Virus record (IMG/VR): IMGVR_UViG_3300021964_009400
Strand: one strand, 5' to 3'
DNA from: a virus
Lineage: Duplodnaviria; Caudoviricetes
Length of the DNA: 64,000 bases
Below are positions 4,559 to 63,054 of the stretch, piece by piece. The notes beneath the pieces were generated by a model. It saw only the letters and a program-made list of their open reading frames with translations. It did no database searches and had not been told where the DNA came from. The translations under genes and the position numbers were made by a program. How positions within the stretch are numbered: the stretch's first letter is position 1; each line of letters opens with the position of its first letter.

Positions 4559-6208
4559 ATGAAAAAGTATTTTTACGAAGTAAGTAAATTTTCCGAATAT
4601 AAATCCAATAAAACTTATCATCAGTTACTTCAAATGACTGATGATGAGTTTACTGATTGGGCAAAGTTGATTCGTAAAGATGTCATAGATGCTTGGGATA
4701 ATCATGGACAACCTCCTGTTAAAGGAAAAGATGAAAATCAGATTATTAATCACTTTGGTAAATTAAAAAATCATGATTGTGATTTTTTTACTAAAGATGA
4801 TAGTGATGATGAATCGTTGGGTATTCTTAAAAACTTTAATAAAAGTCAAAGTGTGGTAAATCAATTTTTCCCCACAATGTTAAAAACAAGAATATCAGAT
4901 GGTGCATCTGCAGAAGGTGGATTATCTATTTATGATTATTTTGCTGAAGATAGTTTAGCAGAAGCTTTTGTAAAGGTAATGAAAAGAGCCGTTAAGAGAG
5001 ATTCTATGTATGCTTGGTGTCGTTCATTAACAACTATTAAAGATGATAATCCTTTTTGGAATGGTCAAACACCATATAAGTTTATCAAAGATGTTCATGA
5101 TGGTAAAATATTTAAAGGAAAATGGGAAAAATATGATATTGTACTTTCAAAAACAACAGAACCTTCAATTAGAAAATATGGTCCTCTAAATGAAAATAAA
5201 CAAACATATGGAGTAATATTATTTTTACATGCTAAACAAGTAAAAAGATTAGTAAAAGAAGGATATTTAAATAAAGGTCATATTTCAAATCTTGGAGATA
5301 TTGAAGATTCAAGAACACAAAAAAATGGTAAAGTAGTAAAATACCTTTATAATATTAGATGGTACAATACAACTGAAGGTATTTTTCCTAAAATTCTGCA
5401 AGCTTTTAGATTAGGATTAGGACAACCAGCAGTAAACTTTCCTGCATTAACTGCTAAGTGGATTTACGAAAAATATACTGACCATATAGAAGAAGATGAA
5501 TCATTACACATTTATGATTCATCAGCAGGGTGGGGTGGTAGAATTATTGGTGCTATGAGTAGTAGAAAGAAAACTCATTATATTGGTACAGACCCTAATC
5601 CAGATAACTTTATTGATGATTTGGGTATTTCTAGATATGAATATATGGCAGATTATTATAATAAAAACTGTGTAGATACTCATTCAGATAAATTAACAAG
5701 TTTCTTTGAAGTAGAAAATCAAGGAAACACTTATGAATTGTTTCAAGATGGTTCAGAGCTAATTCACAAAAATCCAAACTTTCAAAAGTATAAAGGTAAA
5801 TTAGATTTATTCTTTACATCACCACCATACTTTAATAGAGAACAATATTCTCAAGATGAAAATCAATCGTTTAAAGCATATTCTCAATATGATGATTGGA
5901 GAGAAAACTTTTTAAAGCCTACTCTTACAACAATTTATGATTATATGAAAAGTGATAGATATATTCTTTGGAATATTGCATCAATTAAAATTAATAAGAA
6001 TACTTACTTTGATTTAGAAGGAGATTCTATTAAAATTCTAAAAGACCTTGGTGCAGAATATAAAGGTAAACTAAAAATGACAATGGCAGCTATGATTGGT
6101 GCTAATGTAAATAAAAGAGAATCAATTGAAAGTGGTATTAAAAACATGGTTCAAGTTGGAAGTACATGGTACAAATATGAACCTATATTCGTATTTTATA
6201 AAAAATAA
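4559..6208 (+). CDS. Putative DNA methyltransferase (SPPY type, alpha order), paralog 1
   Basis: Motif I YDSSAGWGGR precedes catalytic FTSPPYF. Confidence 0.75.
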   Translation: MKKYFYEVSKFSEYKSNKTYHQLLQMTDDEFTDWAKLIRKDVIDAWDNHGQPPVKGKDENQIINHFGKLKNHDCDFFTKDDSDDESLGILKNFNKSQSVVNQFFPTMLKTRISDGASAEGGLSIYDYFAEDSLAEAFVKVMKRAVKRDSMYAWCRSLTTIKDDNPFWNGQTPYKFIKDVHDGKIFKGKWEKYDIVLSKTTEPSIRKYGPLNENKQTYGVILFLHAKQVKRLVKEGYLNKGHISNLGDIEDSRTQKNGKVVKYLYNIRWYNTTEGIFPKILQAFRLGLGQPAVNFPALTAKWIYEKYTDHIEEDESLHIYDSSAGWGGRIIGAMSSRKKTHYIGTDPNPDNFIDDLGISRYEYMADYYNKNCVDTHSDKLTSFFEVENQGNTYELFQDGSELIHKNPNFQKYKGKLDLFFTSPPYFNREQYSQDENQSFKAYSQYDDWRENFLKPTLTTIYDYMKSDRYILWNIASIKINKNTYFDLEGDSIKILKDLGAEYKGKLKMTMAAMIGANVNKRESIESGIKNMVQVGSTWYKYEPIFVFYKK

Positions 6209-7836
6209 TGAATTATTACTATCAAAGAAATAAGTTTATAAATTTTAAATCAAATATTCTTTTTCACGAATTACTTAATACTAATGATTTTGAATTTGAA
6301 GATTGGGCAAAAACTTTGCGTAAAGAAGTTACTGAACAATGGGATAGATTTGGAAATCCACCTGTTATAGGGAAAAATCATAGTGATATTATTTCATCAT
6401 TTAGTAAGTTAAAATCCAATGATTGTGATTTTCTTATTAAAGATAGTACAGATTCAGAATCTTTAGGTATTATCAAAAACTTCAATAAAGATGCAGCAGT
6501 TGTAAATCAGTTTTTTCCTACAATGTTAAAAACTAAAATATCAAGTGGTAAATCAGCTGAAGGAGGATTATCAATATATGATTATTTTGGTGACCCAACA
6601 ATGGAAGAACAATTTGTTAAGATTATGAAACGAGCAGTTAGACGAGATTCGATGTATGTTTGGTCTCGTTCACTTGTTAATAAGAAAACTGAAAATCCTT
6701 TTTGGAATGGACAGAGTGGATATGATTTTATCAAAGATGTTAAAGATGGAAAAGTATTTACAGGTAAATGGGAAAATTATGATATCTATTTAACTAAATC
6801 AAAGGATAGTACATTTGATAATTATGGAACATTCAATGATGATTATGTTGGATTTACAAACATATATCTTTCAGCAACTGAAGTAAATCAACTATTAGAT
6901 AAAGGTTACTTAAATTCAAGACAAGTTTCTAATATAGATAAAGTTGAAGATTCCTCAACTTCCAAAAGTGGTACCGTAACAAAGTATTCTTATATGGTTC
7001 GTTGGTATGATAAAACAGAAGGATTGTTTCCTAATATGTTGAGAGTAATACGATTGAGTTGTGGTCAAGCAGCAGTAAACTTCCCATCATTGACTGCAAA
7101 ATTTTTATATGAAAAATATACATCACATATTAAACAAGAAGAACCTTTGGTAGTTTATGATTCATCAGCAGGTTGGGGTGGTAGAATCATCGGAGCGATG
7201 AGTTCTCGTAAGAAAATTCATTATGTTGGTACAGACCCTAATCCTGATAACTATTTAAAAGAATTAAATAAATCTCGTTATGAATATGTAGCAGATTTTT
7301 ATAACAAAAATTGTATAGATAATCATTCAAATAAACTTACATCATTCTTTAATGTAGAAAAACAAGGTAATACTTATGAGTTATTCCAAGATGGTTCAGA
7401 GTTAATCTCAAATAATCCAAACTTTCAAAAGTATAAAGGTAAACTAGATATTGCATTTACTTCACCACCATACTTTAACAGAGAGCAATATTCACAAGAT
7501 GAGAAACAATCTTTTAAAGCTTATAGTGAGTATAAGGATTGGAGAGATAACTTCTTAAAACCTACTCTAACAACGATTTACGAGTATCTAAAGAATGATA
7601 GATATATCTTATGGAACATTGCCGATATAAAGATTGGAAAATCAATATATTATCCACTTGAACAAGATTCAATTGATATCTTAAATGGGTTAGGATGTGA
7701 ATACAAAGGTAAACTTAAAATGTTGATGACAAGGATGGTTGGGTTGGACCCATCTAAAAGTGGTATAAAGAACTCTGTCAAATATGGTGGGAAAGTATAT
7801 AAATTTGAACCAATATTTGTTTTTTATAAACCTTAA
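6208..7836 (+). CDS. Putative DNA methyltransferase (SPPY type, alpha order), paralog 2
   Basis: Same motifs as 4559..6208 and collinear with it; TAATG stop/start overlap. Confidence 0.75.
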   Translation: MNYYYQRNKFINFKSNILFHELLNTNDFEFEDWAKTLRKEVTEQWDRFGNPPVIGKNHSDIISSFSKLKSNDCDFLIKDSTDSESLGIIKNFNKDAAVVNQFFPTMLKTKISSGKSAEGGLSIYDYFGDPTMEEQFVKIMKRAVRRDSMYVWSRSLVNKKTENPFWNGQSGYDFIKDVKDGKVFTGKWENYDIYLTKSKDSTFDNYGTFNDDYVGFTNIYLSATEVNQLLDKGYLNSRQVSNIDKVEDSSTSKSGTVTKYSYMVRWYDKTEGLFPNMLRVIRLSCGQAAVNFPSLTAKFLYEKYTSHIKQEEPLVVYDSSAGWGGRIIGAMSSRKKIHYVGTDPNPDNYLKELNKSRYEYVADFYNKNCIDNHSNKLTSFFNVEKQGNTYELFQDGSELISNNPNFQKYKGKLDIAFTSPPYFNREQYSQDEKQSFKAYSEYKDWRDNFLKPTLTTIYEYLKNDRYILWNIADIKIGKSIYYPLEQDSIDILNGLGCEYKGKLKMLMTRMVGLDPSKSGIKNSVKYGGKVYKFEPIFVFYKP

Positions 7837-10823: not shown

Positions 10824-11555
10824 ATGAAAAATATAAATGGTTTAATAACAATAGTGATTCCTTGTTATAACGAGGAAAGATACATTTATAATACTCTATG
10901 GAAAATTTCAAGACAAAAATTTGAAGGTATTATACGAGTTATAATAGCCGATGCTAATTCAACTGATAATACCATTCAACACATTTCAAAGGCATCTCAA
11001 GATTTCAAAAACTTAAAAATTGAAATTATTGAAGGTGGAAAAGTAGGATATGCAAGAAATAATGGAGCATCTCATGTAACAACATCCCATATTCTTTTTA
11101 TGGATGCAGATTCAACACTACATGGAGAAAATATTTTTATAGAGACTCAAAAATATCTAAATGATTATGATATTATATCAGCAAAACAAAAATCAGTTGC
11201 TATAAATGATTTCAAATCAGTTTGGACTTATAAAATATTAGATTGGATTAGAAAAATAATGCCAATCACCTTTTGTACAGGTTGTTTCTTTTTAATATCA
11301 AAAAAGAAATTTAATGAACTTGGTGGATTTGATGAAACCTTACAAAACTCAGAAGATTTTTGGTTATCAAAACAGATACCAAAAAGAAAATTTAAAATAC
11401 TCGATGAGTACATAGGACAAGATAATAGAAGATTTAAAAAGTTTGGTTATTGGAATTTTATAAAAATAAACTTACTAAATTATTTAAATTTTTGGAATAT
11501 AAAATGGTTTAAAAAAGATATAGGATATTGGAAAGAGTATGAGCAAGTTAATTAA
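10824..11555 (+). CDS. Glycosyltransferase family 2
   Basis: ITIVIPCYNEE, IIADANSTDNT, ARNNGA, FMDAD, GGFDE...SED. Confidence 0.9.
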   Translation: MKNINGLITIVIPCYNEERYIYNTLWKISRQKFEGIIRVIIADANSTDNTIQHISKASQDFKNLKIEIIEGGKVGYARNNGASHVTTSHILFMDADSTLHGENIFIETQKYLNDYDIISAKQKSVAINDFKSVWTYKILDWIRKIMPITFCTGCFFLISKKKFNELGGFDETLQNSEDFWLSKQIPKRKFKILDEYIGQDNRRFKKFGYWNFIKINLLNYLNFWNIKWFKKDIGYWKEYEQVN

Positions 11556-51752: not shown

Positions 51753-52226
51753 ATGGTATATTGGTTTACAGGTCAACCTGGAGCAGGAAAAACTATTTTA
51801 GGTAAAAAACTTCACTCATTTCTTAAAACTGAAAAGAGAAATTGGAGAAAAACTGTATTTCATCTTGATGGAGATGACCTTCGAGAACTCACGATTAATA
51901 AAGATTATTCAAAACAAGGTAGGATTAATAATATTAGAAATGCCCAAATGATTGTAGAGTATCTTCATAACAATGATTGTGATGTTGTTATATCTCTTGT
52001 TGCTCCTTATCGTTCAATAAGAGAAGAGTTTAAACAAAAGATAGGTTTGGATAACTTTCAAGAGTTTTATGTACATACACAACAAAAAAGAGAAAGAGAT
52101 AAATTTCATACTAAAGATTATGAAAAACCTCAATTTGAATTTATAGATATAGATACTACTAGAGATAATCCTGATAAATCTTTTTCTAAAATAATAAATA
52201 CTCTTATTAATTTAAATAAATTGTAA
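51753..52226 (+). CDS. cysC: Adenylyl-sulfate (APS) kinase
   Basis: WFTGQPGAGKT, LDGDDLR, DYSKQGR..NI, SLVAPY, YEKP. Confidence 0.88.
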   Translation: MVYWFTGQPGAGKTILGKKLHSFLKTEKRNWRKTVFHLDGDDLRELTINKDYSKQGRINNIRNAQMIVEYLHNNDCDVVISLVAPYRSIREEFKQKIGLDNFQEFYVHTQQKRERDKFHTKDYEKPQFEFIDIDTTRDNPDKSFSKIINTLINLNKL

Positions 52227-53275
52227 TGATTGATAAATCGAAATATATCTGTGCAACTCCATTTGGTTACACAGAGGTTTTTGATGATAAACAATTTTTA
52301 TGTTGTCCTGGATGGTTAAAAGAAGATATATACGAAACACCAAGTATTAAAGATAATTTTAATTCAGAAAAATCTCAAAAAATTAGAGAATCTATTTTAG
52401 ATGGTTCGTATAAATATTGTGATGAAAAACAATGTCCTCATTTATCTGCATTTAAACAAAATAAGTTTATAGATAATAGATTTGTTCTTAAAGATAAAAA
52501 ATCTCTTACACAATATAAACCGATATCAAATATCAATACAATTAATTTTTGTTTTGATAGGAGTTGTAATTTGCAATGTCCATCTTGTAGAAGTGAACTG
52601 ATAAATTATTTAGGAAAAGATAGAGATGGTGTAGAAAATAAACTGAAACAAGTTAATGAAGAAATGTCTACAACAATAAAAAGATTGTATTTAAGTGGTT
52701 CTGCAGACCCTTTTTACTCAAAATCATTTAGACAATTTTTAATAAACTTTGACCCATCAAAGTATCCTAAAATGAAAACAATTCATATTCACACAAATGG
52801 TTTGTTATGGACAGACCAACTTTGGGAACGAATGAAAGGAATTCATAAATTTGTTAAATCATGTGAAGTATCAATTGATGCAGCAACTAAAGACACTTAT
52901 GAAAAGAAAGTTAGAATTGGTGGAAAATGGGAAACTCTTTTAAAACAACTAGATTTTATAATCAATATACCAACTATAAAATCTTATATATTTTCATTTG
53001 TAGTACAAGATAATAATTACAAAGAAATGTATTCTTTTTATGAATTAATAAAAAACTTAAATTGGAAATTTAATAAAAAGTTTACAGTATTTTTTAATCA
53101 TATAACTAATTGGGGAACATATTCAGAACAACAATATTTATTAAAAGATGTTTCAAATAAATCAAACGAATCGCATACAGATTTTTTATTAGAGTTAAAG
53201 AAAATACATAATAAAAAAAATGTATCTCATAATTTTCATCATTTAGTAGAACCAATTAAAAAAAGTTTAATATAA
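52226..53275 (+). CDS. Radical SAM protein with N-terminal SPASM/twitch domain
   Basis: CATPF...CC, CDEKQCP, CNLQCPSC, SGSADP, HTNG. Confidence 0.85.
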   Translation: MIDKSKYICATPFGYTEVFDDKQFLCCPGWLKEDIYETPSIKDNFNSEKSQKIRESILDGSYKYCDEKQCPHLSAFKQNKFIDNRFVLKDKKSLTQYKPISNINTINFCFDRSCNLQCPSCRSELINYLGKDRDGVENKLKQVNEEMSTTIKRLYLSGSADPFYSKSFRQFLINFDPSKYPKMKTIHIHTNGLLWTDQLWERMKGIHKFVKSCEVSIDAATKDTYEKKVRIGGKWETLLKQLDFIINIPTIKSYIFSFVVQDNNYKEMYSFYELIKNLNWKFNKKFTVFFNHITNWGTYSEQQYLLKDVSNKSNESHTDFLLELKKIHNKKNVSHNFHHLVEPIKKSLI

Positions 53276-53634
53276 TGAAAAAGTATTCAATGTTTATTGG
53301 CAGGTGGCAACCACTTCACAAAGGCCATCTTTGGTTAATTAATCAAAGATTAAAAGAAGGTAAAAATGTATGTTTAGCAATTAGAGATGTTGAACCAAAT
53401 GAAAATCAACCTTGGACGGCTCATCAAATTGAAGAAATGATTCACGAGGGAGAATTAAAAGAATTAATACAAGATGGTAGAGTAATAACAACAATAATAC
53501 CTGATATAGAATCAATCAACTATGGTAGAGGTGTTGGTTATGAAGTAATTGAACACTTTCCACCAGATGAAATTAAAGAAATCTCAGCAACCTCAATTAG
53601 AGAACAAATGAGAAAAGAAGGTAAATTGTTATGA
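53275..53634 (+). CDS. Minimal HxGH nucleotidyltransferase (cytidylyltransferase / ATP-sulfurylase-like)
   Basis: GRWQPLHKGH, ISATSIR. Confidence 0.78.
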   Translation: MKKYSMFIGRWQPLHKGHLWLINQRLKEGKNVCLAIRDVEPNENQPWTAHQIEEMIHEGELKELIQDGRVITTIIPDIESINYGRGVGYEVIEHFPPDEIKEISATSIREQMRKEGKLL

Positions 53635-54143
53635 TATTTGAAGATTCAATACCATTATTTAATTCAAGTGAATTAGATTTTATTAAATCTAGTTGGAGAA
53701 ACGATAGGGCAGAAGAAAGAAACTATAAAGATAGAAGTTATTATTATAATGTTCTTTATGATTTGCCTCAACAGTATGTAGATAGATTTTTAGATTGGAT
53801 TGAAAATAAAATTGAAAAGAAAATTGAAAATAGAAAAAAATATGATTTAATTCTACACAAATTTGAAAAAGGAGATTATTTTGATTATCATACAGATGAT
53901 GGATATAAAGAACTTGGAAAGAGAGAATATGCTGCCGGATTTCATGTAAATGATGATTATGATGGTGGAGAATTTGTTGTATATGAAAACCATAAAGAAA
54001 GAGTTATAGGAAAAAAAGCTGGTATTCCTTATATATTTTCATCTGATGTTGGTCATAGAATAAATAAAGTTAAATCAAATATTAGATATAGTATAATCAT
54101 ATTTATATATGATAATTCTATTGATAATAAAAGTTTAATATGA
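53631..54143 (+). CDS. 2OG-Fe(II) oxygenase (prolyl-hydroxylase-like)
   Basis: FDYHTD, DYDGGEF, GHRINKV..NIRY. Confidence 0.82.
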   Translation: MIFEDSIPLFNSSELDFIKSSWRNDRAEERNYKDRSYYYNVLYDLPQQYVDRFLDWIENKIEKKIENRKKYDLILHKFEKGDYFDYHTDDGYKELGKREYAAGFHVNDDYDGGEFVVYENHKERVIGKKAGIPYIFSSDVGHRINKVKSNIRYSIIIFIYDNSIDNKSLI

Positions 54144-54649
54144 CAATCCAAGAAGTAAATAAAATACTAGATACTTATCATTCTAAAGATTGGAATGATA
54201 ATCCTTATTTTGTATATAAACAACATAATTTTAAGAAAGTTAAATGGTTTTTAATAAATAATGTAGAAGAATTTTCTTTTGTAAGAGATATTCTAACAAA
54301 AGAAGTTAAAAAATTAAATGAAAAATACTTTGTATCAGAATTTATAATTTTATTAATATATGATGAAGGAGATTATTTTGCAAGACACAAAGACCAACCA
54401 AGTGGTGTTTACACACCAGCTGGTGGTGGAACTGTGTTTGAAAACAAATTAGTTTATTCAGCAGGATATTTATTAAATGATGATTTTGAAGGAGGTGATT
54501 TTATGTTTGAAGATAAAAAACTAGAAGCTGAAATTGGAGAGTTATTTTATTTTTCAAGAGATGAATATCATGAAATAAAACCAGTGACAAAAGGTAGAAG
54601 ATTTTCTTTACATTTTACAATAGATGAAGAAAAAAGTAGTTTAATATAA
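54140..54649 (+). CDS. 2OG-Fe(II) oxygenase (prolyl-hydroxylase-like)
   Basis: FARHKD, DFEGGDF, YHEIKPVTKGRR. Confidence 0.82.
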   Translation: MTIQEVNKILDTYHSKDWNDNPYFVYKQHNFKKVKWFLINNVEEFSFVRDILTKEVKKLNEKYFVSEFIILLIYDEGDYFARHKDQPSGVYTPAGGGTVFENKLVYSAGYLLNDDFEGGDFMFEDKKLEAEIGELFYFSRDEYHEIKPVTKGRRFSLHFTIDEEKSSLI

Positions 54650-54651
54650 AA

Positions 54652-54873
54652 ATGAAAATACACACAATACATATCTTAAAAACAATTACATGGAGAATTG
54701 TAGGTACTTTAGATACTATGATTATTTCATGGTTAATTACAGATAATTGGAAATGGGGAGTTGCAATTGGAGGTGTCGAGTTAATAACAAAAATGGTTCT
54801 TTATTATTTACATGAAAGAGCCTGGTATAAATTTAATAATTATGAAATTGATAAAACCACAAGTAAAAAATGA
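54652..54873 (+). CDS. DUF2061-like membrane protein
   Basis: KTITWRIVGT...K..LYYLHERAW. Confidence 0.75.
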   Translation: MKIHTIHILKTITWRIVGTLDTMIISWLITDNWKWGVAIGGVELITKMVLYYLHERAWYKFNNYEIDKTTSKK

Positions 54874-55879
54874 ATGGGGTAATCTAAAAGAGATTATTGT
54901 AGGAACAACAAGAGGTGCACAAGTACCAACAGTAGGAGATAAATGTTTACATAGTATTGATTATGCACATTTATCAGAACAAGAGTTCAAAAACAGACCA
55001 TCTGGCCCATATCCAAAACAGGTCATGTTTGAAATGGAAGAAGATTTGGAAAATATTGCAAACACTTTAAAAAATCTTGGTGTTAAAGTACACCGACCAA
55101 TCGATATAGATTTTTCACAACCAATCGTAACAGAAAATTGGACAGTTGATGGATATTATAATTACTGTCCAAGAGATTCTATGTTAGTAATAAATGATAA
55201 GGTTATTGCAACACCAATGACCTTAAGACATAGGAGTAATGAAGCAGAAACTTGTAAACCATTATTTGACCAAAATCATTGGGTTGAAGCACCAAAACCA
55301 AAATTATTAGATTCAATATATCAAAGGGAAGATTTATCTATTCCAACTCTACTTGATGGTGAACCTGTTTTTGATGCAGCTAATGTAATTAAACATAATA
55401 ATGATTTACTATATTTAGTTTCTAATACTGGTAATAAGACAGGTGCAGAATGGTTAGAAAGATATTGTAAAGAGAATTTTGGTGAAGAATATAATGTACA
55501 TTTAGCAGAAAATGTTTATGCTTATATTCACATTGATACAACATTTGTATTTTTGGGTGAGGGTAAGGTACTTTTAAATCCTTCAAGAGTAAGTCAATTT
55601 AATTTACCAGAATTTTTACATAGATTTGATAAAATTTGGGCACCCGAACCATTTCCTACTCAAGTTCTTGATGATTGGTGTCCTGCATCACCTTGGTTGG
55701 GTATGAATATTTTACCAATCAATGATAAACTTTGTATGGTGGAAGAAAATCAAACAATGTTAATGAAAGAATTAAAAAGATTTAATATTGAATCAATACC
55801 AGTAAAAATGAGACATTCAAGAACTTTTAGTGGTGGACCACATTGTGTAACTTTAGATGTTGTAAGAGAAGATGAATAG
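54842..55879 (+). CDS. Amidinotransferase (glycine / scyllo-inosamine-phosphate amidinotransferase family)
   Basis: NEWGNLKEIIVG, CPRD, DAAN, HIDTT, GGPHCVT (Asp/His/Cys triad). Confidence 0.88.
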   Translation: MKLIKPQVKNEWGNLKEIIVGTTRGAQVPTVGDKCLHSIDYAHLSEQEFKNRPSGPYPKQVMFEMEEDLENIANTLKNLGVKVHRPIDIDFSQPIVTENWTVDGYYNYCPRDSMLVINDKVIATPMTLRHRSNEAETCKPLFDQNHWVEAPKPKLLDSIYQREDLSIPTLLDGEPVFDAANVIKHNNDLLYLVSNTGNKTGAEWLERYCKENFGEEYNVHLAENVYAYIHIDTTFVFLGEGKVLLNPSRVSQFNLPEFLHRFDKIWAPEPFPTQVLDDWCPASPWLGMNILPINDKLCMVEENQTMLMKELKRFNIESIPVKMRHSRTFSGGPHCVTLDVVREDE

Positions 55880-56960
55880 AATTGCTGATTTTCATTTACA
55901 ATCAACTAGATTATTTGGAAGATTATTAACTATTACAGATACTCCTTATACTACACTAGTTGGTAAATATGATTATATCTTTACACATAGACAAATAGAA
56001 GATGAAGGAGAAATTGAAAAAATAATTTCATATTGTAAACCAACATCAACTATAATAGTTGATATAACTACCGAATCCGGTCAAGTGGAAGTTTTTCTTA
56101 ATGTGTTTAAACAAATAATAAAAAATTATAATTACAAATTTGTTTTAATAGCAGATGTTCCAATTAAAGAAAATTTAAACTGTAAAGTAATTGATGATTA
56201 TTCACTTGCATTTGCATCTCATTTAAATGATAATTTATTCGGTAGAGTTTATTTTCATAATTGTGGTGCATCCTTAAAACATGGACTAAATAGTTTTAAT
56301 GGTTCTTTAAGAAATCAACGAGTATGGCTAAATTGGCTTTTAGTTCGTAAATTTAAAAATTCAGAACTTCCTTTGAGTGTAGAATTTCATCATTATATCA
56401 ATGGGGAAAATGGACCTGCATTTGTTGAGGAAGTGTGGAACGATTTCCTTAAAAAATTTCCTAAAGAAGTTGAAGAAAATTTAAGGGATAGGCAATTTAT
56501 AACAAAACATACAGAAAAAAATCCTATACTATTAACTGAATATAACAAAGTATCTAGTCTTACAGAGACAATAAATTTAGTAAGTGAAAATGTAGTAGGG
56601 AGTGATATGAATGTAGGTGATGATAAACACCATATAACTTTTACAGAAAAAACTATTAAACCATTTATAAGAGGACAGATTCCTTTAATACATGGTTACT
56701 TTGGATTACAAAATGAATTAAGAAAATTAGGATTTGATTTATTTGATGACCTTATAGATAATTCATATGAACAAGAATCTGATTCTTATAAAAGACTTCA
56801 AATGCTTGTAGATGAATCTTATCGATTATTAAATATAGATACTGAAACTTATTTAAAAAATAATATTAAACGAGTTTACAATAACAAAAAACTATGTGAA
56901 AAGTTAGTTTATAAAGGTAAAACTTTAATATATAACTTGGTGGAAGAAATTATACTCTAA
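55872..56960 (+). CDS. Phage GT-like hypothetical protein
   Basis: INLVSE, TEKTIKPF, GFDLFDDLIDNSYE. Confidence 0.55.
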   Translation: MNRIADFHLQSTRLFGRLLTITDTPYTTLVGKYDYIFTHRQIEDEGEIEKIISYCKPTSTIIVDITTESGQVEVFLNVFKQIIKNYNYKFVLIADVPIKENLNCKVIDDYSLAFASHLNDNLFGRVYFHNCGASLKHGLNSFNGSLRNQRVWLNWLLVRKFKNSELPLSVEFHHYINGENGPAFVEEVWNDFLKKFPKEVEENLRDRQFITKHTEKNPILLTEYNKVSSLTETINLVSENVVGSDMNVGDDKHHITFTEKTIKPFIRGQIPLIHGYFGLQNELRKLGFDLFDDLIDNSYEQESDSYKRLQMLVDESYRLLNIDTETYLKNNIKRVYNNKKLCEKLVYKGKTLIYNLVEEIIL

Positions 56961-56997
56961 AAATTAGAAAAGCCTATCAAAAAATTTTAATATACTA

Positions 56998-57005
56998 TAC
57001 TTATA
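56998..57005 (+). promoter_or_regulatory. Putative late promoter motif TACTTATA
   Basis: Intergenic, before 57021. Confidence 0.4.
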
Positions 57006-57020
57006 ATAAAGGTTATTACT

Positions 57021-57584
57021 ATGGAAAATAAAAATGAAAAGATATTCCCCAACTACGACCCTACACAAGATTTATCTTTAGCTGGTAAGAATAGAAGAAT
57101 GAAAAGAGGCTTGGGTGCAAAACCTTTGTTAGAATCTGAAATTAAAGAGGTACAAACAAAAGCTCGTTCAGCAATGGAAGCAGCAAGATTACTTGGTGTA
57201 TCTTATAACACATACAAAAAATACGCAAGAAAATATGGTATCTTTGAGGATTTAAAAAATCCAGATGGAAATGGTATTCGAAAAGGATATAATATCAAAA
57301 GAGGAAAATATTCTCTTGACGATATATTAAAAGGAGAGTATCCAGAGTATCCAGTATGGAAACTTAAACAAAGATTGCTTAATAATGGTTATATGTTAGA
57401 AAAGTGTAACAATTGTGGATTTGAAGAAAGAAGAGTTATTGATGGAAAAGTTCCTTTAGTATTAGATTTTGAAGATGGTGATAGAAAGAATCATAAATAC
57501 CAAAACCTTAGAATGTTATGTTTTAACTGTTCATTTCTCATCAATGGAAACCTTTCAGGACCAAAAAAAGAATATGAATATTAA
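57021..57584 (+). CDS. HTH + degenerate HNH / Zn-finger protein
   Basis: EAARLLGVSYNTYKKYA helix-turn-helix; CNNC...LDFEDGDRKN...NLRMLCFNC. Confidence 0.7.
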   Translation: MENKNEKIFPNYDPTQDLSLAGKNRRMKRGLGAKPLLESEIKEVQTKARSAMEAARLLGVSYNTYKKYARKYGIFEDLKNPDGNGIRKGYNIKRGKYSLDDILKGEYPEYPVWKLKQRLLNNGYMLEKCNNCGFEERRVIDGKVPLVLDFEDGDRKNHKYQNLRMLCFNCSFLINGNLSGPKKEYEY

Positions 57585-57601
57585 AAAAAATACCTTTTTT
57601 A

Positions 57602-57633
57602 TTTGGTAATCTAAAAAAAAAGTTGTATATTTG
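57602..57633 (+). promoter_or_regulatory. Bacteroidetes primary-sigma promoter
   Basis: TTTG-N20-TATATTTG. Confidence 0.75.
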
Positions 57634-57641
57634 TACTCAAT

Positions 57642-57965
57642 ATGAGTTATATAATCGGAAATAAGTGTGTAAGTGTTTGTGATACTGCTTGTGTAAAGGT
57701 ATGTCCTGTTAATTGTATTCATGGTCCTATCGATGTTACAGGAGCAGGAAATGAGGTTGATAATATGTCACCTGAAGAATTAAAAGGAAAACAATTGTAC
57801 ATTAATCCTGAAGAATGTATCTTATGCGGTGCTTGTGTACCTGAATGTCCTCCAGATGCTATTTTCTATGATGAAGAAGATGCAATTAAAGCAGAAGGAA
57901 ACGATGAATCAGTTAAAAAAAACTATGAATTTTTTGGATTTGAATTTCCTAAAGATAAATTTTAA
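57642..57965 (+). CDS. Dicluster ferredoxin (FdxA-like)
   Basis: CVSVCDTACVKVCP and INPEECILCGACVPECP. Confidence 0.9.
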   Translation: MSYIIGNKCVSVCDTACVKVCPVNCIHGPIDVTGAGNEVDNMSPEELKGKQLYINPEECILCGACVPECPPDAIFYDEEDAIKAEGNDESVKKNYEFFGFEFPKDKF

Positions 57966-57971
57966 AAAAAA

Positions 57972-58003
57972 TTAGGAAATTAAATAAAATTTTCGTATCT
58001 TTG
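57972..58003 (+). promoter_or_regulatory. Bacteroidetes-type promoter
   Basis: TTAG-N20-TATCTTTG. Confidence 0.7.
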
Positions 58004-58041
58004 TATAACAAATAAATATATATTAATATAAAACTAAAATT

Positions 58042-58254
58042 ATGAGTAAATTTTTCGAAGTAACAGTAGAAGTGGTTGTTGCCACACTTAAAAATGGTAA
58101 AGACAAAAAAGCAAAAGAAATCTACTTAGTAGATGCACAATCGGTAACAGAAGCTGAATCAAGAGTTGTAAAAGATTTTGAAGATAGTGGAGTTCAGATT
58201 GACTACAAAGTAAGTGGAGCAAAAGAAAGTAGAGTATTAAGAGTAATTGAGTAA
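58042..58254 (+). CDS. DUF4494-like protein (Bacteroidetes-associated family)
   Basis: FFEV...NGKDKKAKEIYLVDAQSVTEAESRV. Confidence 0.7.
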   Translation: MSKFFEVTVEVVVATLKNGKDKKAKEIYLVDAQSVTEAESRVVKDFEDSGVQIDYKVSGAKESRVLRVIE

Positions 58255-58520
58255 TGAGTAAAGAACCTCAAATACAAGAAAACGAAGTTAAAACTAAAGT
58301 TGCAAAGAGAGTACCACCTGGAGATAGGTGGACTCCTCTTTCTAACTCAACAGTTATATTGGATTCTTTAACTGATGTTCTTGAGTTTATTTATCAAGAT
58401 ACCGGTACAACACAATTTTATATGGATGCCAGAGAAGGATTCGTTTATGTTGTTGATACCGAAGAAATAATAATAGAACCAGAACCAGAAAAAAGATGGA
58501 GTTTATACGGTGAAGAGTAA
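58254..58520 (+). CDS. Hypothetical protein
   Basis: 88-aa coupled ORF. Confidence 0.55.
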   Translation: MSKEPQIQENEVKTKVAKRVPPGDRWTPLSNSTVILDSLTDVLEFIYQDTGTTQFYMDAREGFVYVVDTEEIIIEPEPEKRWSLYGEE

Positions 58521-58650
58521 GTTAAGAAAATTCGTTTTAAAAATAGTATTTGCATACGCAATACTATTCCCATCATCAGGTCTTATAACAGAATTAGAAG
58601 ATTATAATTCTAAAGCACCTGAAGATATGGATGAACATATGTTTATCTAA
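58510..58650 (+). CDS. 46-aa hypothetical protein (not in track)
   Basis: GTG start; MKSKLRKFVLKIVFAYAILFPSSGLITELEDYNSKAPEDMDEHMFI. Confidence 0.3.
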   Translation: MKSKLRKFVLKIVFAYAILFPSSGLITELEDYNSKAPEDMDEHMFI

Positions 58651-58701
58651 AAATATATGTATAAACTTTAATTTAAGTTTACGAAATAAAAAGAAGTTAT
58701 T

Positions 58702-59322
58702 TTGATAGAAACAAATAAATCAATTCTTATCATCGCAGTTCCAAGAAGTGGTTCTACTTCTTTATGTAATGCTTTTGGAAAAAGTTTTTTTGCAATGTTT
58801 GAACCTTTAAATATGCTATTTAGGCCTAAAATAGATACAAAAACATTCATTGAACAAATTTCTAAAAAAAATATAGTTGTAAAAACTATGCCAGACCATT
58901 TACCATATGATTGGAAAGCAGGTGATTATCTAAACTTTATAAAAACTATAATTCCTTATTTTGACCATGTTATTCTTTTGGATAGAAAAAATATAAAGGA
59001 ACAGTATGATTCATATATTAAGTTAGTTCTTTTTATTGAAAAACAAAGAAAAGGAGATTTTTTAGGAAAATCAAATTCAACTGAAAAAAGAATAACCTTA
59101 GCAGAAAAATTTTTTTGGTTACAAAAATATTTAATTAGAGAAATATCTATTAATTATAATCTTAAAATATATTTTTATGAAGATATATTTTTTGATAATT
59201 ATGAATCAATATTTAATGAATTGCGAATTGATATTGATTTAATAGATAGAAGATATTTAGACCCTAAATACAGGTATAAAGACCACCCTTTTAAAGTAGA
59301 ATTTCCAAAAAATTTAATATAG
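58702..59322 (+). CDS. Sulfotransferase-family protein
   Basis: IIAVPRSGSTSL 5'-PSB-like loop, FEP, ILLDRKN..Q..S, YED. Confidence 0.7.
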   Translation: MIETNKSILIIAVPRSGSTSLCNAFGKSFFAMFEPLNMLFRPKIDTKTFIEQISKKNIVVKTMPDHLPYDWKAGDYLNFIKTIIPYFDHVILLDRKNIKEQYDSYIKLVLFIEKQRKGDFLGKSNSTEKRITLAEKFFWLQKYLIREISINYNLKIYFYEDIFFDNYESIFNELRIDIDLIDRRYLDPKYRYKDHPFKVEFPKNLI

Positions 59323-60227
59323 TGAAATATAAAGTAATATTTGTAAATTGGACAAAACCTTTCTTTTATAAAAATAAAGGTAAGGAATATGATGTGGTTG
59401 ATTATGAATTATTAATAAATAAAGTAGCAATAATAAGTGCAAGAAAGTTTTTAAAAGTTCCAATCAAATTATATACTGATGATGTTGGATATTCTTTTTA
59501 TGAGAAACACAACATGATTGAGTTGTTTGATGAAATAGATGTAGATACACTAAATAAACACAATGAACATACTTTAGATGCAGGTAAATGGTGGACAAGT
59601 GGTAAATCAATAGCAATAGGAAAAGAAGAATCCCCATTTTTATTTTTAGATAATGATTTCATAGTTCGAAGTGAATTACCAAAAACAATATTTGATTATG
59701 ATTTAGTTCACACTCATTGGGAATTACACAGAGGAAAATACTTTGTTACAGATGAATTAATTAAAAAATATAAAGTTCCTATAAAAAATTTCAATCAAAG
59801 AATGTTAATGCCAAATACTTCTTTTGTATTTATGAATAATAAAGAATTACAAAATAGTTACTATTGTAATCATCTTAATGTAGTTTTAACTGAATACAAA
59901 GATATACCAGAATGGTTATGGTTATTATCAGACCAATCTATTCTTGGTTATTGTGCAAGAGAATTGAATTCAAAAGTTGGGTGTATTGAGGATAAAACTT
60001 ATTTAGGATTTTCAGAAGAAGCATTATTCTCTGATGTATCTCAAAAAGATTGTGGTTATTCTCCAATGTGGGTTGATTCAAATAGTTCGAATATTATTGG
60101 CAATTTTAAGTATTGGCATATTTGGTTAGAGAAACATCACATGCATAAAAATTTAAAATATCGTAAAAATGCTATAAGTAAACTAAACAATATTCTAAAT
60201 CAAAATAAAAATAAAGTTTTATTATGA
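59322..60227 (+). CDS. GT-like protein (DUF6734-like)
   Basis: IKLYTD, PFLFLDND DxD motif, DQ near the C-terminus. Confidence 0.5.
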   Translation: MKYKVIFVNWTKPFFYKNKGKEYDVVDYELLINKVAIISARKFLKVPIKLYTDDVGYSFYEKHNMIELFDEIDVDTLNKHNEHTLDAGKWWTSGKSIAIGKEESPFLFLDNDFIVRSELPKTIFDYDLVHTHWELHRGKYFVTDELIKKYKVPIKNFNQRMLMPNTSFVFMNNKELQNSYYCNHLNVVLTEYKDIPEWLWLLSDQSILGYCARELNSKVGCIEDKTYLGFSEEALFSDVSQKDCGYSPMWVDSNSSNIIGNFKYWHIWLEKHHMHKNLKYRKNAISKLNNILNQNKNKVLL

Positions 60228-61036
60228 TTGAAAACTTTTATTTTTTTGGTACGTCATATTCTGCAGGTGGTGGTTTAAAAAACCATAAAACAGAAAATTT
60301 ACACTGTCAAAATTACTTAAAAAAATTAATTACGATTTCGAAATACAAAAATTTACCAAAAAATTATTCAGTATCATATGAATTTAAAAAACTTTTAGAT
60401 ACAAATCATATAAAATATAAAAATATTAAAAATTTATCAAAAGGAGGTTATGGTCTCGAAAGAATATTTAGAGAAGTTCACAAATTAATTTTTGATAGTA
60501 ATTTTAATAAAAATAAATCTATACTAATAATTGAATTATCAGATAATATATGGAGAAGGGATTTTTATTATAATCCAATAAAAGATTATGTTGTTGGTAC
60601 ACATAGAAGAGGATTAGATTCATTTTATATAATGAACAAATTTTGGGAAGATAGTAAAAGTACTATAAATTCATTTTTAAAAAATAAAGAAAAAATAATA
60701 GATTTTTTTAAATTAACTTATGATGTCAATGAAACTATAAAAAAATCTGAAATTGATACTTTAATGTTAATATCACTATTAGAAAACTTAAAAATTAATT
60801 ATGTTTTTTCATCAGGTCCTTATTATGTAAATCAAAATAAATTAAATAAAATAAATTTTAATTACGATAAAATAATATTAGATGATTTAGAAAGTTGGAT
60901 TGTTGAAAAAAAATTAGATATACATAGTGAAAGTAAAGGTAAAGTACCAGATGCACAACATCTTGGAATAGTTGGAACAAAAATACTAAGTAAACTAATT
61001 TTTAATAAAATCTTTAAAAATAAAATTTTAATGTAA
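60224..61036 (+). CDS. SGNH-hydrolase-like protein
   Basis: FFGTSYSAG, NLSKGG, DAQHLG..G. Confidence 0.55.
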   Translation: MIENFYFFGTSYSAGGGLKNHKTENLHCQNYLKKLITISKYKNLPKNYSVSYEFKKLLDTNHIKYKNIKNLSKGGYGLERIFREVHKLIFDSNFNKNKSILIIELSDNIWRRDFYYNPIKDYVVGTHRRGLDSFYIMNKFWEDSKSTINSFLKNKEKIIDFFKLTYDVNETIKKSEIDTLMLISLLENLKINYVFSSGPYYVNQNKLNKINFNYDKIILDDLESWIVEKKLDIHSESKGKVPDAQHLGIVGTKILSKLIFNKIFKNKILM

Positions 61037-61714
61037 ATGAAACGTATTGATAATTTATTAGATAATTATAAACCTGATAATTTTTTTGTATTACAAATAG
61101 GTGCACACGATGGAATAACATTAGACCCAATTTCAAGTAAAGTAAAAGAGAATGGTTGGAGTGGATTATTTGTAGAACCTGTTGATTATTTATTTGAAAG
61201 ATTAAAATTAAATTACAAGGGTTATGATAATTTAAATTTTGAAAATTCTATTATATCCAATAAAAAAGGATATGTAGATTTTTATGAATACCCACAAGAA
61301 TCAGAAAATGATAATGAATTTCCTTATGGTTCTTGTATGGGTTCAGTTTTAAAACCATTTGATTCGATTGCACATAAAAAGTTAAAATATGATGTTATCA
61401 AAAAACAATATCAAAGTTTAACATTCAATGATTTGATTGAAAAATATAATATAAAAAATATTGATTTACTACAAATAGATGCTGAAGGTTATGATGGAGA
61501 AATAATTTGTAGTATTAATTTTAATAAAGTAAGACCAAAATTTATCAGATATGAAGATAGGCATACTGATATTGTTTATAATAAAAAATTAACAAAAGTT
61601 TCATCAAACGATGTAGTAAGTTATTTAAATGAAAATAACTATACAGTTGGTGATATAGAAAATGGTTATGATAGAGTTTGTGTATGTAATTCTATTTTCA
61701 AAAGTCTAATTTAA
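61037..61714 (+). CDS. FkbM-family methyltransferase
   Basis: QIGAHDG, VEP, IDLLQIDAEGYD. Confidence 0.88.
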   Translation: MKRIDNLLDNYKPDNFFVLQIGAHDGITLDPISSKVKENGWSGLFVEPVDYLFERLKLNYKGYDNLNFENSIISNKKGYVDFYEYPQESENDNEFPYGSCMGSVLKPFDSIAHKKLKYDVIKKQYQSLTFNDLIEKYNIKNIDLLQIDAEGYDGEIICSINFNKVRPKFIRYEDRHTDIVYNKKLTKVSSNDVVSYLNENNYTVGDIENGYDRVCVCNSIFKSLI

Positions 61715-61715
61715 T

Positions 61716-62288
61716 ATGAAAACTGCTTGGTTCTTTGGAGATTCTTTTGTTTATGGTTGGGGTTGTAAAGATAAAACCAATGATAAGGATAAAATAATGT
61801 CTCAAATTGTATCTGAACATTTAAATTGTAAAGAAAATAATTTGGCACAATATGGATATTCAAATGAAAATATATTATTTAGTATATTGACAAACATAAA
61901 TCAAATTAAAAAAGGAGATTATGTTATTATATTTGATACACATTCACTAAGGTCACCATTCGTTAGAGAAGATTTAGATTTCTATTCTAATTGGCCAGAA
62001 CTTTCATATTTTCAGATACCAAAAAATAAGAGTGATATGTATTACTCGTTTAGACTAGAGTTAATATCAAAACTTTTACCTTATTATCAAAGTATGTTTA
62101 ATAATCTCGTAGATTTTCTTAAATCTAATGAAATAAATTCTTATTACTTTCCATCTAATGATAAATGGTGGATAGATAAAAAAATAAATCACAACTCACA
62201 AGAAGATGGAGCACATTGGAGTTTTAAGGGACACGCACAAGTTGCTAAATGGATAATAAATATTATTGAAAAAAATAATCTAATTTAA
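61716..62288 (+). CDS. SGNH-hydrolase-like protein
   Basis: FFGDSFVYG, NLAQYGYSN, DGAHWS..GH. Confidence 0.7.
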   Translation: MKTAWFFGDSFVYGWGCKDKTNDKDKIMSQIVSEHLNCKENNLAQYGYSNENILFSILTNINQIKKGDYVIIFDTHSLRSPFVREDLDFYSNWPELSYFQIPKNKSDMYYSFRLELISKLLPYYQSMFNNLVDFLKSNEINSYYFPSNDKWWIDKKINHNSQEDGAHWSFKGHAQVAKWIINIIEKNNLI

Positions 62289-62289
62289 A

Positions 62290-63054
62290 ATGAATTTAAT
62301 TTTTAGTTTTTCAACACATATTGGAGATTATAAAGGTGGTAGGTACACTAAAGATAATAAAACAGACCATGTTTTAGAAATGTACAAAGTTGCAATGGAG
62401 AGGGCAAATGATTTTGGTCATGAAGTGAAGTTTTATGGTTGTGATTATTGTATTGATTTTCTAAAAGGTTATTATCGTGAAAGTGTAAGTGTAGAAAATA
62501 TTGACTTTGATATTACTGATGATTTAAAAATGTATATTCATAGTAAAGAAGAATCAGGTATTGTAACTATTGATGGTGATTTGATTCTTAATAAAAAGTT
62601 AAAAATAAATGAAAATGCAGATGTGGTATTTGAACAAATAGAAGAAGTACTACCAAATAAAAATCCATCGGGGTCACAAGCACCAGAGATATTTAAATCA
62701 TTGGAAAAATATGATGTTTATAATAAATTTAAACACTTTATCAAAGGTAATGATACAATGTATAATGTGGGTATATTGTATTTTAAAAATAATGAAATAA
62801 AAAAAATATTTTTAGATTCTTTTTATAATATCAAAAAATGGTATTTAACTAATGTAGAACCTAACGAAAAACTAATTCCAAAGGGAGTGATTGTTTCAGT
62901 TATTCTTTGTCAATATTATTTTAAGTGTATTTCAGATAAAAATAAACTAAATGTAGAATTTGCAGAAAATACTAATGATTACAAACATTACTATGGCCAT
63001 GCTAAATTCCATAAAAAGATTTTTCAAATTATAAAAAATAAAACAACAATTTAA
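62290..63054 (+). CDS. GT-like protein (related to 59322)
   Basis: VTIDGDLIL DxD motif, YNVGIL, HYYG. Confidence 0.5.
   Translation: MNLIFSFSTHIGDYKGGRYTKDNKTDHVLEMYKVAMERANDFGHEVKFYGCDYCIDFLKGYYRESVSVENIDFDITDDLKMYIHSKEESGIVTIDGDLILNKKLKINENADVVFEQIEEVLPNKNPSGSQAPEIFKSLEKYDVYNKFKHFIKGNDTMYNVGILYFKNNEIKKIFLDSFYNIKKWYLTNVEPNEKLIPKGVIVSVILCQYYFKCISDKNKLNVEFAENTNDYKHYYGHAKFHKKIFQIIKNKTTI

Follow-up and report, generated by a model that had tools for sequence, protein, structure and literature searches.

The window analysed here is a stretch of viral DNA of 64,000 nucleotides (nt) (Duplodnaviria; Caudoviricetes; IMG/VR virus record IMGVR_UViG_3300021964_009400), and our subject is a short hydrophobic C-terminal tag shared by unrelated small enzymes that are encoded together in it. 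A preliminary description of the window had noticed this tag, in the form K(S/N)LI, at 52226–63054 and had interpreted it as a possible docking signal. The window has 29% G+C, with all genes on the + strand, and encodes a T4-type DNA polymerase (phrog_262, 1e-182), DNA methyltransferases, and a clamp-loader-like AAA protein. Its source is a large uncultured marine T4-like phage. Among 50,697 cultured phage records, nothing close was found either by megablast of the enzyme cluster or by tblastn of the radical SAM enzyme, the sulfotransferase-like protein, and the ligase domain described below.

The small-enzyme cluster lies at 50.9–63.1 kb and consists of two blocks, parted by an untagged insert at 57.0–58.5 kb. 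Its genes, with their Pfam matches and protein C-termini, are as follows (aa, amino acids; ORF, open reading frame).

51753..52226, + strand: APS kinase (PF01583 at 2.4e-16); C-terminus NLNKL, with one terminal Leu, borderline
52226..53275, + strand: radical SAM enzyme (PF04055 at 1.5e-6, 28.9 bits, just below the 29.5-bit cut-off); tag KKSLI
53275..53634, + strand: cytidylyltransferase-like protein (PF01467 at 2.9e-6); variant tag EGKLL
53631..54143, + strand: 2-oxoglutarate (2OG)-Fe(II) oxygenase with a predicted prolyl-hydroxylase-like fold (PF13640); tag NKSLI on a tail predicted to be disordered
54140..54649, + strand: second 2OG-Fe(II) oxygenase, a 28% identical paralogue of the first (PF13640 at 1e-6); tag KSSLI
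54652..54873, + strand: DUF2061 membrane protein (PF09834 at 3e-23); untagged, ends TSKK
54812..55879, + strand: amidinotransferase/arginine deiminase (ADI)-like protein (no Pfam match here); untagged, ends REDE
55872..56960, + strand: 362-aa phage-specific protein (no Pfam match); variant tag EEIIL
57021..58520, + strand: untagged insert with an HNH-like 187-aa protein, a ferredoxin, DUF4494, and an 88-aa ORF; C-termini EYEY, KDKF, RVIE, and YGEE
58702..59322, + strand: P-loop sulfotransferase-like protein with a PRSGS motif (no Pfam match); tag PKNLI
59322..60227, + strand: DUF6734-like protein (PF20508 at 1.9e-4, below the cut-off); variant tag KNKVLL
60224..61036, + strand: 270-aa phage-specific protein (DUF6071/GDSL lead only); variant tag KNKILM
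61037..61714, + strand: FkbM-family methyltransferase (PF05050 at 8.4e-15); tag FKSLI
61716..62288, + strand: SGNH/GDSL-like hydrolase, a weak match (PF00657 at 8.6e-5, just below the cut-off); tag KNNLI
62290..63054, + strand: DUF6734-like 254-aa protein (atlas lead); degenerate tag KNKTTI

The sequence [KSN][SN]LI forms the C-terminus of six unrelated enzymes encoded between 52226 and 62288. Four further cluster genes end in variants with two hydrophobic residues (KLL, IIL, VLL, and ILM), and one more ends in TTI. The LI codons of the six exact tags are TTA ATA in four genes and CTA ATT in two. The tag reads AAA AGT TTA ATA in the radical SAM gene, followed by the stop TAA, AAA AGT CTA ATT in the FkbM gene, and AAT AAT CTA ATT in the SGNH gene. 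All C-termini quoted in the preliminary description proved correct in the sequence, and we added EGKLL (53275–53634) and EEIIL (55872–56960) as variants. Most of its enzyme labels were supported by Pfam, except that ‘sulfotransferase’ and ‘amidinotransferase’ have no Pfam match and rest on motifs or faint homologue matches.

Enrichment was tested over all + strand calls of at least 40 aa, 19 in the cluster and 62 elsewhere in the window. LI endings were present in 6/19 cluster genes and, just as the preliminary description had stated, in 0/62 of the others (Fisher 8.4e-5). A binomial test gave P 1.4e-8 when these endings were compared with the internal LI frequency of the cluster proteins (0.9%). 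Two hydrophobic last residues were found in 10/19 cluster genes versus 2/62 outside (P 2.5e-6), and the tetrapeptide [KSN][SN]LI occurred at internal sites once in 19,821 positions. These enrichment tests ruled out chance or base composition as the source of the tag. The shared ending is genuine and far beyond chance.

A glycan cluster at 10824–33645 served as an internal control. It has the same base composition and the same tight gene coupling, and it encodes GT2, GT1/GT4-conflict, NAD epimerase, UDP-glucose dehydrogenase, DegT aminotransferase, radical SAM/SPASM, and HAD proteins, none of which carries the tag. Because its enzymes are untagged, this cluster belongs to the same phage but represents a separate pathway. 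As had been claimed, the tag is specific to a particular set of enzymes with unrelated folds, since the 10.8–33.6 kb genes are without it.

Several other genes of the window deserve mention. For the 362-aa protein (55872–56960), atlas matches were viral clusters only, with a weak GT10 lead. The 187-aa HNH-like protein (57021–57584) has a Cys/His pattern and no Pfam match, and may be a mobile endonuclease insertion interrupting the tagged cluster. Tandem paralogues at 4559–6208 and 6208–7836 (549 and 542 aa) have methyltransferase-like C-terminal parts and end in PIFVFYK(K/P); a relative of theirs in L068 (18102–19682), one of the contigs from related phages that are given here by L numbers, ends in PIFIFYKK.

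Conservation and protein-level selection of the tag

We pooled the tags of the window and its relatives, which gave 86 non-identical tagged proteins. The last residue was I in 52, L in 23, F in 7, and M and V in 2 each. The penultimate residue was the best conserved position, with L in 66 proteins and I in 16. At the third-from-last position, K, N, and T were found 18 times each and S 10 times, and K was the commonest residue at positions −6 to −3, ahead of the aliphatic dipeptide. Endings of the pattern [K/N]-x-[L/I]-[I/L/F]-COOH constitute a genuine short linear motif that is tied to the C-terminus and carried on a flexible tail.

A survey of C-termini in relatives, as suggested in the preliminary description, revealed that the hydrophobic dipeptide is kept in orthologues down to 25–50% identity. 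Twenty orthologues of the 2OG oxygenase (58–99% identity) end in NKSLI, KKTFI, KSILI, KRILI, AKSVI, and similar sequences, with the terminal Ile forming a nearly invariant column of the alignment. Radical SAM orthologues at 44–77% identity end in KTLF, NII, KKLF, NVI, and KTLI. An exhaustive search of the sulfotransferase-like family yielded 150 cluster representatives with 25–71% identity to the query (below 45% in all except seven); a terminal I or L was present in 125/150 and a preceding hydrophobic residue in 119/150. In this family, the linker from the KYR motif to the terminus varies from 5 to 13 residues, and the dipeptide always comes last. A variable linker combined with a fixed terminal dipeptide indicates that the motif is read from the free C-terminus.

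Other families gave a mixed picture. Among the six FkbM homologues with at least 55% identity, all from the phage clade, four end in VI, LL, FL, and LL, and two in KIT and KLK; more distant FkbM homologues are untagged, and so are cyanophage-type 2OG homologues. Cytidylyltransferase-like orthologues end in DGKL. A 28% identical homologue of the 254-aa DUF6734-like protein ends in NQTLI and lies inside the ligase island of L068 (see below). According to the preliminary description, cofactor-supply enzymes of the cluster lack the tag. This was confirmed for DUF2061 and the amidinotransferase-like protein, including their homologues: those of the former are untagged, and those of the latter are all untagged, also in cyanophage-type contigs, with a 60% identical one in L068 giving a faint PF02274 match. 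The APS kinase, ending in NKL, was instead a borderline case, and its orthologues in L002 and L003 end in DYI and EYI.

A distant radical SAM clade (L004–L017, 32% identity) ends in TN[IVF]. Some of its members add EE or EEKK, so that the hydrophobic residue is no longer terminal. Unlike the window, the L004–L017 contigs have AGGAG ribosome-binding sites.

The structural setting of the tag was examined in an AlphaFold2 model of the window 2OG oxygenase (53631–54143), with a mean predicted local distance difference test score (pLDDT) of 89 and a predicted template modelling score (pTM) of 0.84. Residues 165–170 (DNKSLI) had a pLDDT below 50 and no secondary structure. In this model, the tag is thus predicted to be a free, exposed tail after the last strand. 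The nearest folds were Pseudomonas putida prolyl hydroxylase P4H with EF-Tu, PHD2, and chlorovirus vCPH, and this predicted prolyl-hydroxylase-like fold hints at a protein or peptide substrate for the oxygenase.

For each of the six genes with an exact LI tag, the next start either adjoins the gene end or lies within it (gaps of −4 to +2), and the tag hexamers are AT-rich. The ending might accordingly be a nucleotide-level junction feature, namely a signal for coupling or re-initiation, a scar left by cassette recombination, or a product of AT-rich composition. The remaining coupled junctions of the window (gap of 4 nt or less) argue against this: a hydrophobic dipeptide ending was found at 1/35 and an LI ending at 0/35, compared with hydrophobic dipeptide endings at 9/13 coupled junctions inside the cluster (P 4e-6 versus outside). 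The tag also keeps a constant position relative to its own stop, while its distance from the next start ranges from 1 to 6 nt. In the 86 tagged proteins, the codons for Leu and Ile in the tail showed no significant departure from internal usage (P 0.07 each), and CTA, TTG, CTT, and ATC were all represented among the tail codons. Their stop codons were TAA in 48, TGA in 30, and TAG in 8 genes. The next gene was at least 20 nt away in 13/78 tagged genes, and tagged genes with gaps of 20–480 nt as well as tagged genes at the end of a run both occur.

Because codon usage is ordinary, all three stops are used, and spacing is fixed to the stop and variable to the next start, we conclude that selection keeps the tail at the protein level. 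Such constraint had been proposed earlier from synonymous codon differences, and the conservation of the terminus at long divergence agrees with it. Translational coupling, re-initiation, and promoter overlap were rejected, as the other coupled junctions lack the tag, next-start spacing varies, and tail codons are ordinary. A neutral recombination scar was excluded by the retention of the terminal residues at 25–35% protein identity with a variable linker length. We also dropped a slippery A-run frameshift into the next gene, since the junction offsets differ (−4, −1, 0, +1, and +2) and no single frameshift could therefore fuse the frames. A further point against a nucleotide-level origin is the 44-kb distance of the cluster from the main island, described below. 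Taken together, nucleotide-level explanations are largely refuted.

A ligase-Hint gene heads the tagged islands

In every tagged contig from related phages, the tagged run begins directly after a gene that we call ligase-Hint and a conserved ORF of 45–50 aa; this order was seen in L021, L026, L028–L033, and L068–L070. Behind the ligase gene and small ORF in these contigs, 60–82% of the ORFs are tagged. Tagged genes follow a fusion gene of this type in hundreds of uncultured relatives, a wider context that the preliminary description had missed. In L021, L026, and L028–L033, 53–82% of the ORFs end in two hydrophobic residues, where ~8% would be expected from internal dipeptides. The proportion was 0–6% in cyanophage-type contigs (38% G+C) with distant 2OG homologues. 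The 107 non-identical tagged proteins fell into 38 BLAST families. Island enzymes vary widely among relatives and include SET-domain, guanidinoacetate-methyltransferase-like, B12-radical SAM, 2OG, and P-loop proteins, and homologues of the window enzymes occur inside the islands of other phages. The preliminary description had envisaged a modification assembly line with swappable cassettes; the great differences in island gene content among relatives, with the tag staying in place, fit this reading.

The ligase-Hint protein consists of an N-terminal domain of ~300 aa, a degenerate bacterial intein-like (BIL)/Hint domain, and one to three canonical Hint domains ending in ...VHNK. A model of its residues 1–460 reached a pLDDT of 83. 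The N-terminal domain of the model matched the folds of Escherichia coli glutathionylspermidine synthetase (GspS), YgiC/YjfC, and glutathione synthetase. The remainder matched bacterial intein-like domains, with the BIL domains of the Tetrahymena BUBL locus among the top fold matches. From this model, the protein is predicted to be a permuted ATP-grasp carboxylate-amine ligase fused to self-cleaving BIL/Hint domains. A predicted complex of the ligase and BIL domain of L021 (460 aa, with ATP) with a tagged 2OG oxygenase from the same contig scored 0.00, and we used this result neither way.

The ligase-Hint family comprises at least 493 protein clusters in metagenomes, and tblastn of the ligase domain found no member in cultured phages. 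The records behind the tagged loci L026, L025, and L032 contained the ligase. No copy was found in the untagged L056 and L061, or in the complete 239-kb untagged genome behind L037. A full-text literature search turned up no account of either the tag or the ligase-Hint cassette, and the phage ligase-Hint system is undescribed.

No match to the ligase-Hint or small-ORF proteins was obtained by tblastn against the window itself. The genome is represented on JGI contig 3300021959 Ga0222716_10000090 and on longer records. A JGI contig that overlaps the window by 5,571 bases, all of them identical, allowed us to walk beyond the window end, where the following features were located in window-equivalent coordinates.

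106964–107329: ~120-aa tagged protein, also at L020:5328–5687, L025:4165–4524, and L069:8355–8717 (~1.3 kb upstream of the ligase in L069)
107393–109183: ligase-Hint gene, 596 aa, with a degenerate BIL and a canonical Hint domain, ending VHNK
107393–109332 (L078:17198–19137): ligase-Hint gene together with the 45-aa ORF

The ligase-Hint protein of this genome is 35–41% identical to those of relatives. The 45-aa ORF resembles the 47–50 aa ORFs of relatives in having YK at the N-terminus, RTT..LT in the centre, and KxH at the C-terminus, the overall consensus being LYKKK...RTT..LT...FFxLFxxKH(L)S. The genes that follow the ligase and the 45-aa ORF end in KKSLV, KKILM, and DNLL, and the preceding gene ends in KRDIL. 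A few more tagged genes, such as a radical SAM enzyme ending in KKKLM, are scattered between the cluster and the ligase site. The window cluster is a satellite of the ligase-Hint system, 44 kb from the ligase gene. This distance indicates that the tag marks a pathway and travels with the enzymes, and not with a locus, which in turn argues for a function in trans.

A conserved protein of ~120 aa, encoded at or just upstream of the ligase-Hint gene, is also tagged (KSLI, ETLI, KDLI, and RDIL), and no other tagged gene occurs regularly on the upstream side. The same genome also carries a ribosomal protein S21 gene (PF01165) at L076:17453–17644 (window-equivalent ~89.2 kb). At L071:18431–20250 (window-equivalent ~71.5–73.4 kb), adenine phosphoribosyltransferase-like, PNP/MTA-nucleosidase-like, and ferredoxin-NADP reductase-like genes stand in a row and are untagged.

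Possible roles of the tag and known C-terminal signals

Most probably, the tag is a label for the enzymes of a single modification pathway encoded by the phage. On the sequence evidence, we put a probability of roughly 0.55 on a single reader that binds the tail and gathers unrelated small enzymes on one scaffold or substrate. In such a mechanism, a single pocket of a shared reader protein would accept the free tail with its terminal carboxylate and its pair of aliphatic side chains. Recruitment to one scaffold or substrate would then be open to small single-domain enzymes whatever their fold, none of which would need a recognition domain of its own, and new enzymes could join the pathway by gaining the tail. 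As candidate readers we consider the ligase-BIL protein and the conserved small ORF. The groove of HSP20 was considered as a reader and rejected; HSP20 was seen beside tagged islands (L020 and L069), and phages that lack the tag commonly have it as well.

Several points weigh against a common reader. The tag varies in sequence (LI, LL, II, LF, and VI), some island genes are untagged, and a few genes outside the islands have similar endings. The link to the ligase is one of co-occurrence only, on fragments mostly covering ~10 kb on each side. Furthermore, a degron or a ligation handle would fit the same sequence evidence equally well.

A C-terminal label of four residues on dozens of unrelated enzyme families would represent a new way of organising a viral pathway for biosynthesis or protein modification. 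It implies a single reader accepting any tail-bearing enzyme, which would explain how enzymes are freely swapped in hypervariable islands, and the tail could serve in bacteria as a minimal, portable means of bringing enzymes together. The tag is also a practical sequence marker for pathway members, including satellites far from the core genes, and makes the function of the ligase-Hint cassette, which is widespread in marine and freshwater T4-like phages, directly testable.

A C-terminal degron is an unlikely alternative to the common reader. A basic-then-aliphatic end would be read by a host AAA+ protease (ClpXP, ClpAP, FtsH, or Lon), and the enzymes would be short-lived or removed at a set time of infection. 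The dependence of the motif on a free C-terminus and its position on a disordered tail are consistent with this idea, and non-polar C-termini reportedly destabilise proteins in bacteria. ClpX C-motif 2 of the phage Mu transposase is reported to be RRKKAI-COOH, close to KKSLI and KRILI; it consists of basic residues, a small or aliphatic residue, and a terminal Ile, and one host machine reads it through the free C-terminus. The phage tag, however, has Leu in place of Ala and co-occurs with a phage ligase gene, and nothing links it to Clp. No whole sets of biosynthetic enzymes are known to carry C-motif 2. A degron would account neither for the tie to the ligase-Hint island nor for the absence of the tag from the other accessory enzymes of the same phage, and there is no apparent reason to keep a destabilising signal on 38 families over long divergence.

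Alternatively, the tail might be a ligation handle. A GspS-like ligase would activate its carboxylate as an acyl phosphate and link it either to an amine or, through its Cys, to the fused Hint domain, in a ubiquitin-like conjugation of whole enzymes. The island-defining gene is predicted to have the fold of GspS and glutathione synthetase, which activate peptide C-terminal alpha-carboxylates. The definition of the tag by its free C-terminus and the top fold matches to BIL domains of the BUBL locus also point in this direction. Among ATP-grasp enzymes, RimK and tubulin tyrosine ligase have protein C-termini as their site of action, and BIL domains of the BUBL type reportedly drive enzyme-free conjugation. 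We nonetheless regard a ligation handle as quite improbable; the proposal is purely inferential, and the ligase could act on the small ORF or on a metabolite instead. A fully developed version would make the tail the substrate end of a protein-conjugation system, in which the ligase activates the Ile/Leu carboxylate, Hint/BIL carries or transfers the acyl group, and the enzymes become covalently attached to one shared target, which could be the conserved small protein, a protein of the virion, or a polyamine. Such a ubiquitin-like logic, built from ATP-grasp and Hint domains, should be seen as something of a long shot.

It is very improbable that the tails arose by convergence without any common reader, each serving the folding, autoinhibition, or self-assembly of its own enzyme. 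Hydrophobic C-terminal dipeptides can pack on neighbouring subunits, and the tail is short. However, 38 unrelated families have the same ordered motif (Leu then Ile, after K/N/T/S) only in phages with one cassette, and the tail is predicted to be free in the monomer model. The nucleotide-level junction feature dealt with above is the least probable explanation of all.

In light of the common-reader proposal, we compared the tag with known systems. Clusters for ribosomally synthesised and post-translationally modified peptides (RiPPs) likewise have a small conserved ORF followed by radical SAM, 2OG, methyltransferase, and SET-type enzymes (a polytheonamide-type repertoire), with one recognition principle for many enzymes. 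In RiPP clusters, however, the handle is on the substrate leader and each enzyme has a RiPP recognition element (RRE) as the reader, whereas in the phage the handle is on the enzymes, and the phage small ORF is conserved over its whole length with no hypervariable core. The beta/gp45 sliding-clamp motif (QL[SD]LF, or the T4-type hydrophobic-acidic tail) was rejected, as the tags contain no conserved Q or aromatic residue and the phage polymerase ends in EKFFSF, unlike the tag; of the window proteins scanned, none was identified as a clamp. The C-terminal domain of the type IX secretion system (T9SS), a ~80-aa domain that goes with a signal peptide, was also rejected because it is not present.

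Encapsulin and microcompartment peptides are short C-terminal extensions on flexible linkers that address unrelated enzymes and are encoded beside a system-defining gene. For encapsulins, the neighbouring gene encodes an HK97-fold shell, and the targeting peptide is rich in Gly/Ser/Leu and ~10 aa long. Encapsulin and microcompartment peptides differ from the tag in their length of 10–20 residues, in their consensus, and in not needing a free carboxylate. There was no shell gene in the Pfam lists of the islands, which are defined by the ligase-Hint fusion and have the tail consensus K/N-x-L-I. Class I PDZ ligands (x-[S/T]-x-hydrophobic-COOH) are tetrapeptides with a hydrophobic last residue and a free carboxylate, and KSLI, KTLF, and KTTI fit this pattern. 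The tags do have a hydrophobic residue at the true terminus, but Ser/Thr stands at −2 in only 28/86 tagged proteins (S in 4/6 exact tags of the window), and they are best conserved at the penultimate Leu/Ile, which class I PDZ domains do not require. No PDZ gene was seen.

The peroxisomal targeting signal PTS1 is a signal of three or four residues at the extreme C-terminus, basic and aliphatic in character and found on many unrelated enzymes. It can be moved between proteins and has one receptor, the tetratricopeptide repeat (TPR) domain of Pex5, with the consensus [SAC]-[KRH]-[LM]-COOH. The order in the phage tag is instead a basic or polar residue, any residue, and two aliphatics, in a prokaryotic and viral setting with no organelle. 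None of the window tails has the S-K-L order, and no TPR or Pex5-like receptor was matched among the window and locus proteins scanned, which covered part of the window proteins. As it fails their defining sequence features, the tag is not a member of the PTS1, class I PDZ, encapsulin, or clamp motifs. By analogy, it may nevertheless work as such C-terminal address labels do.

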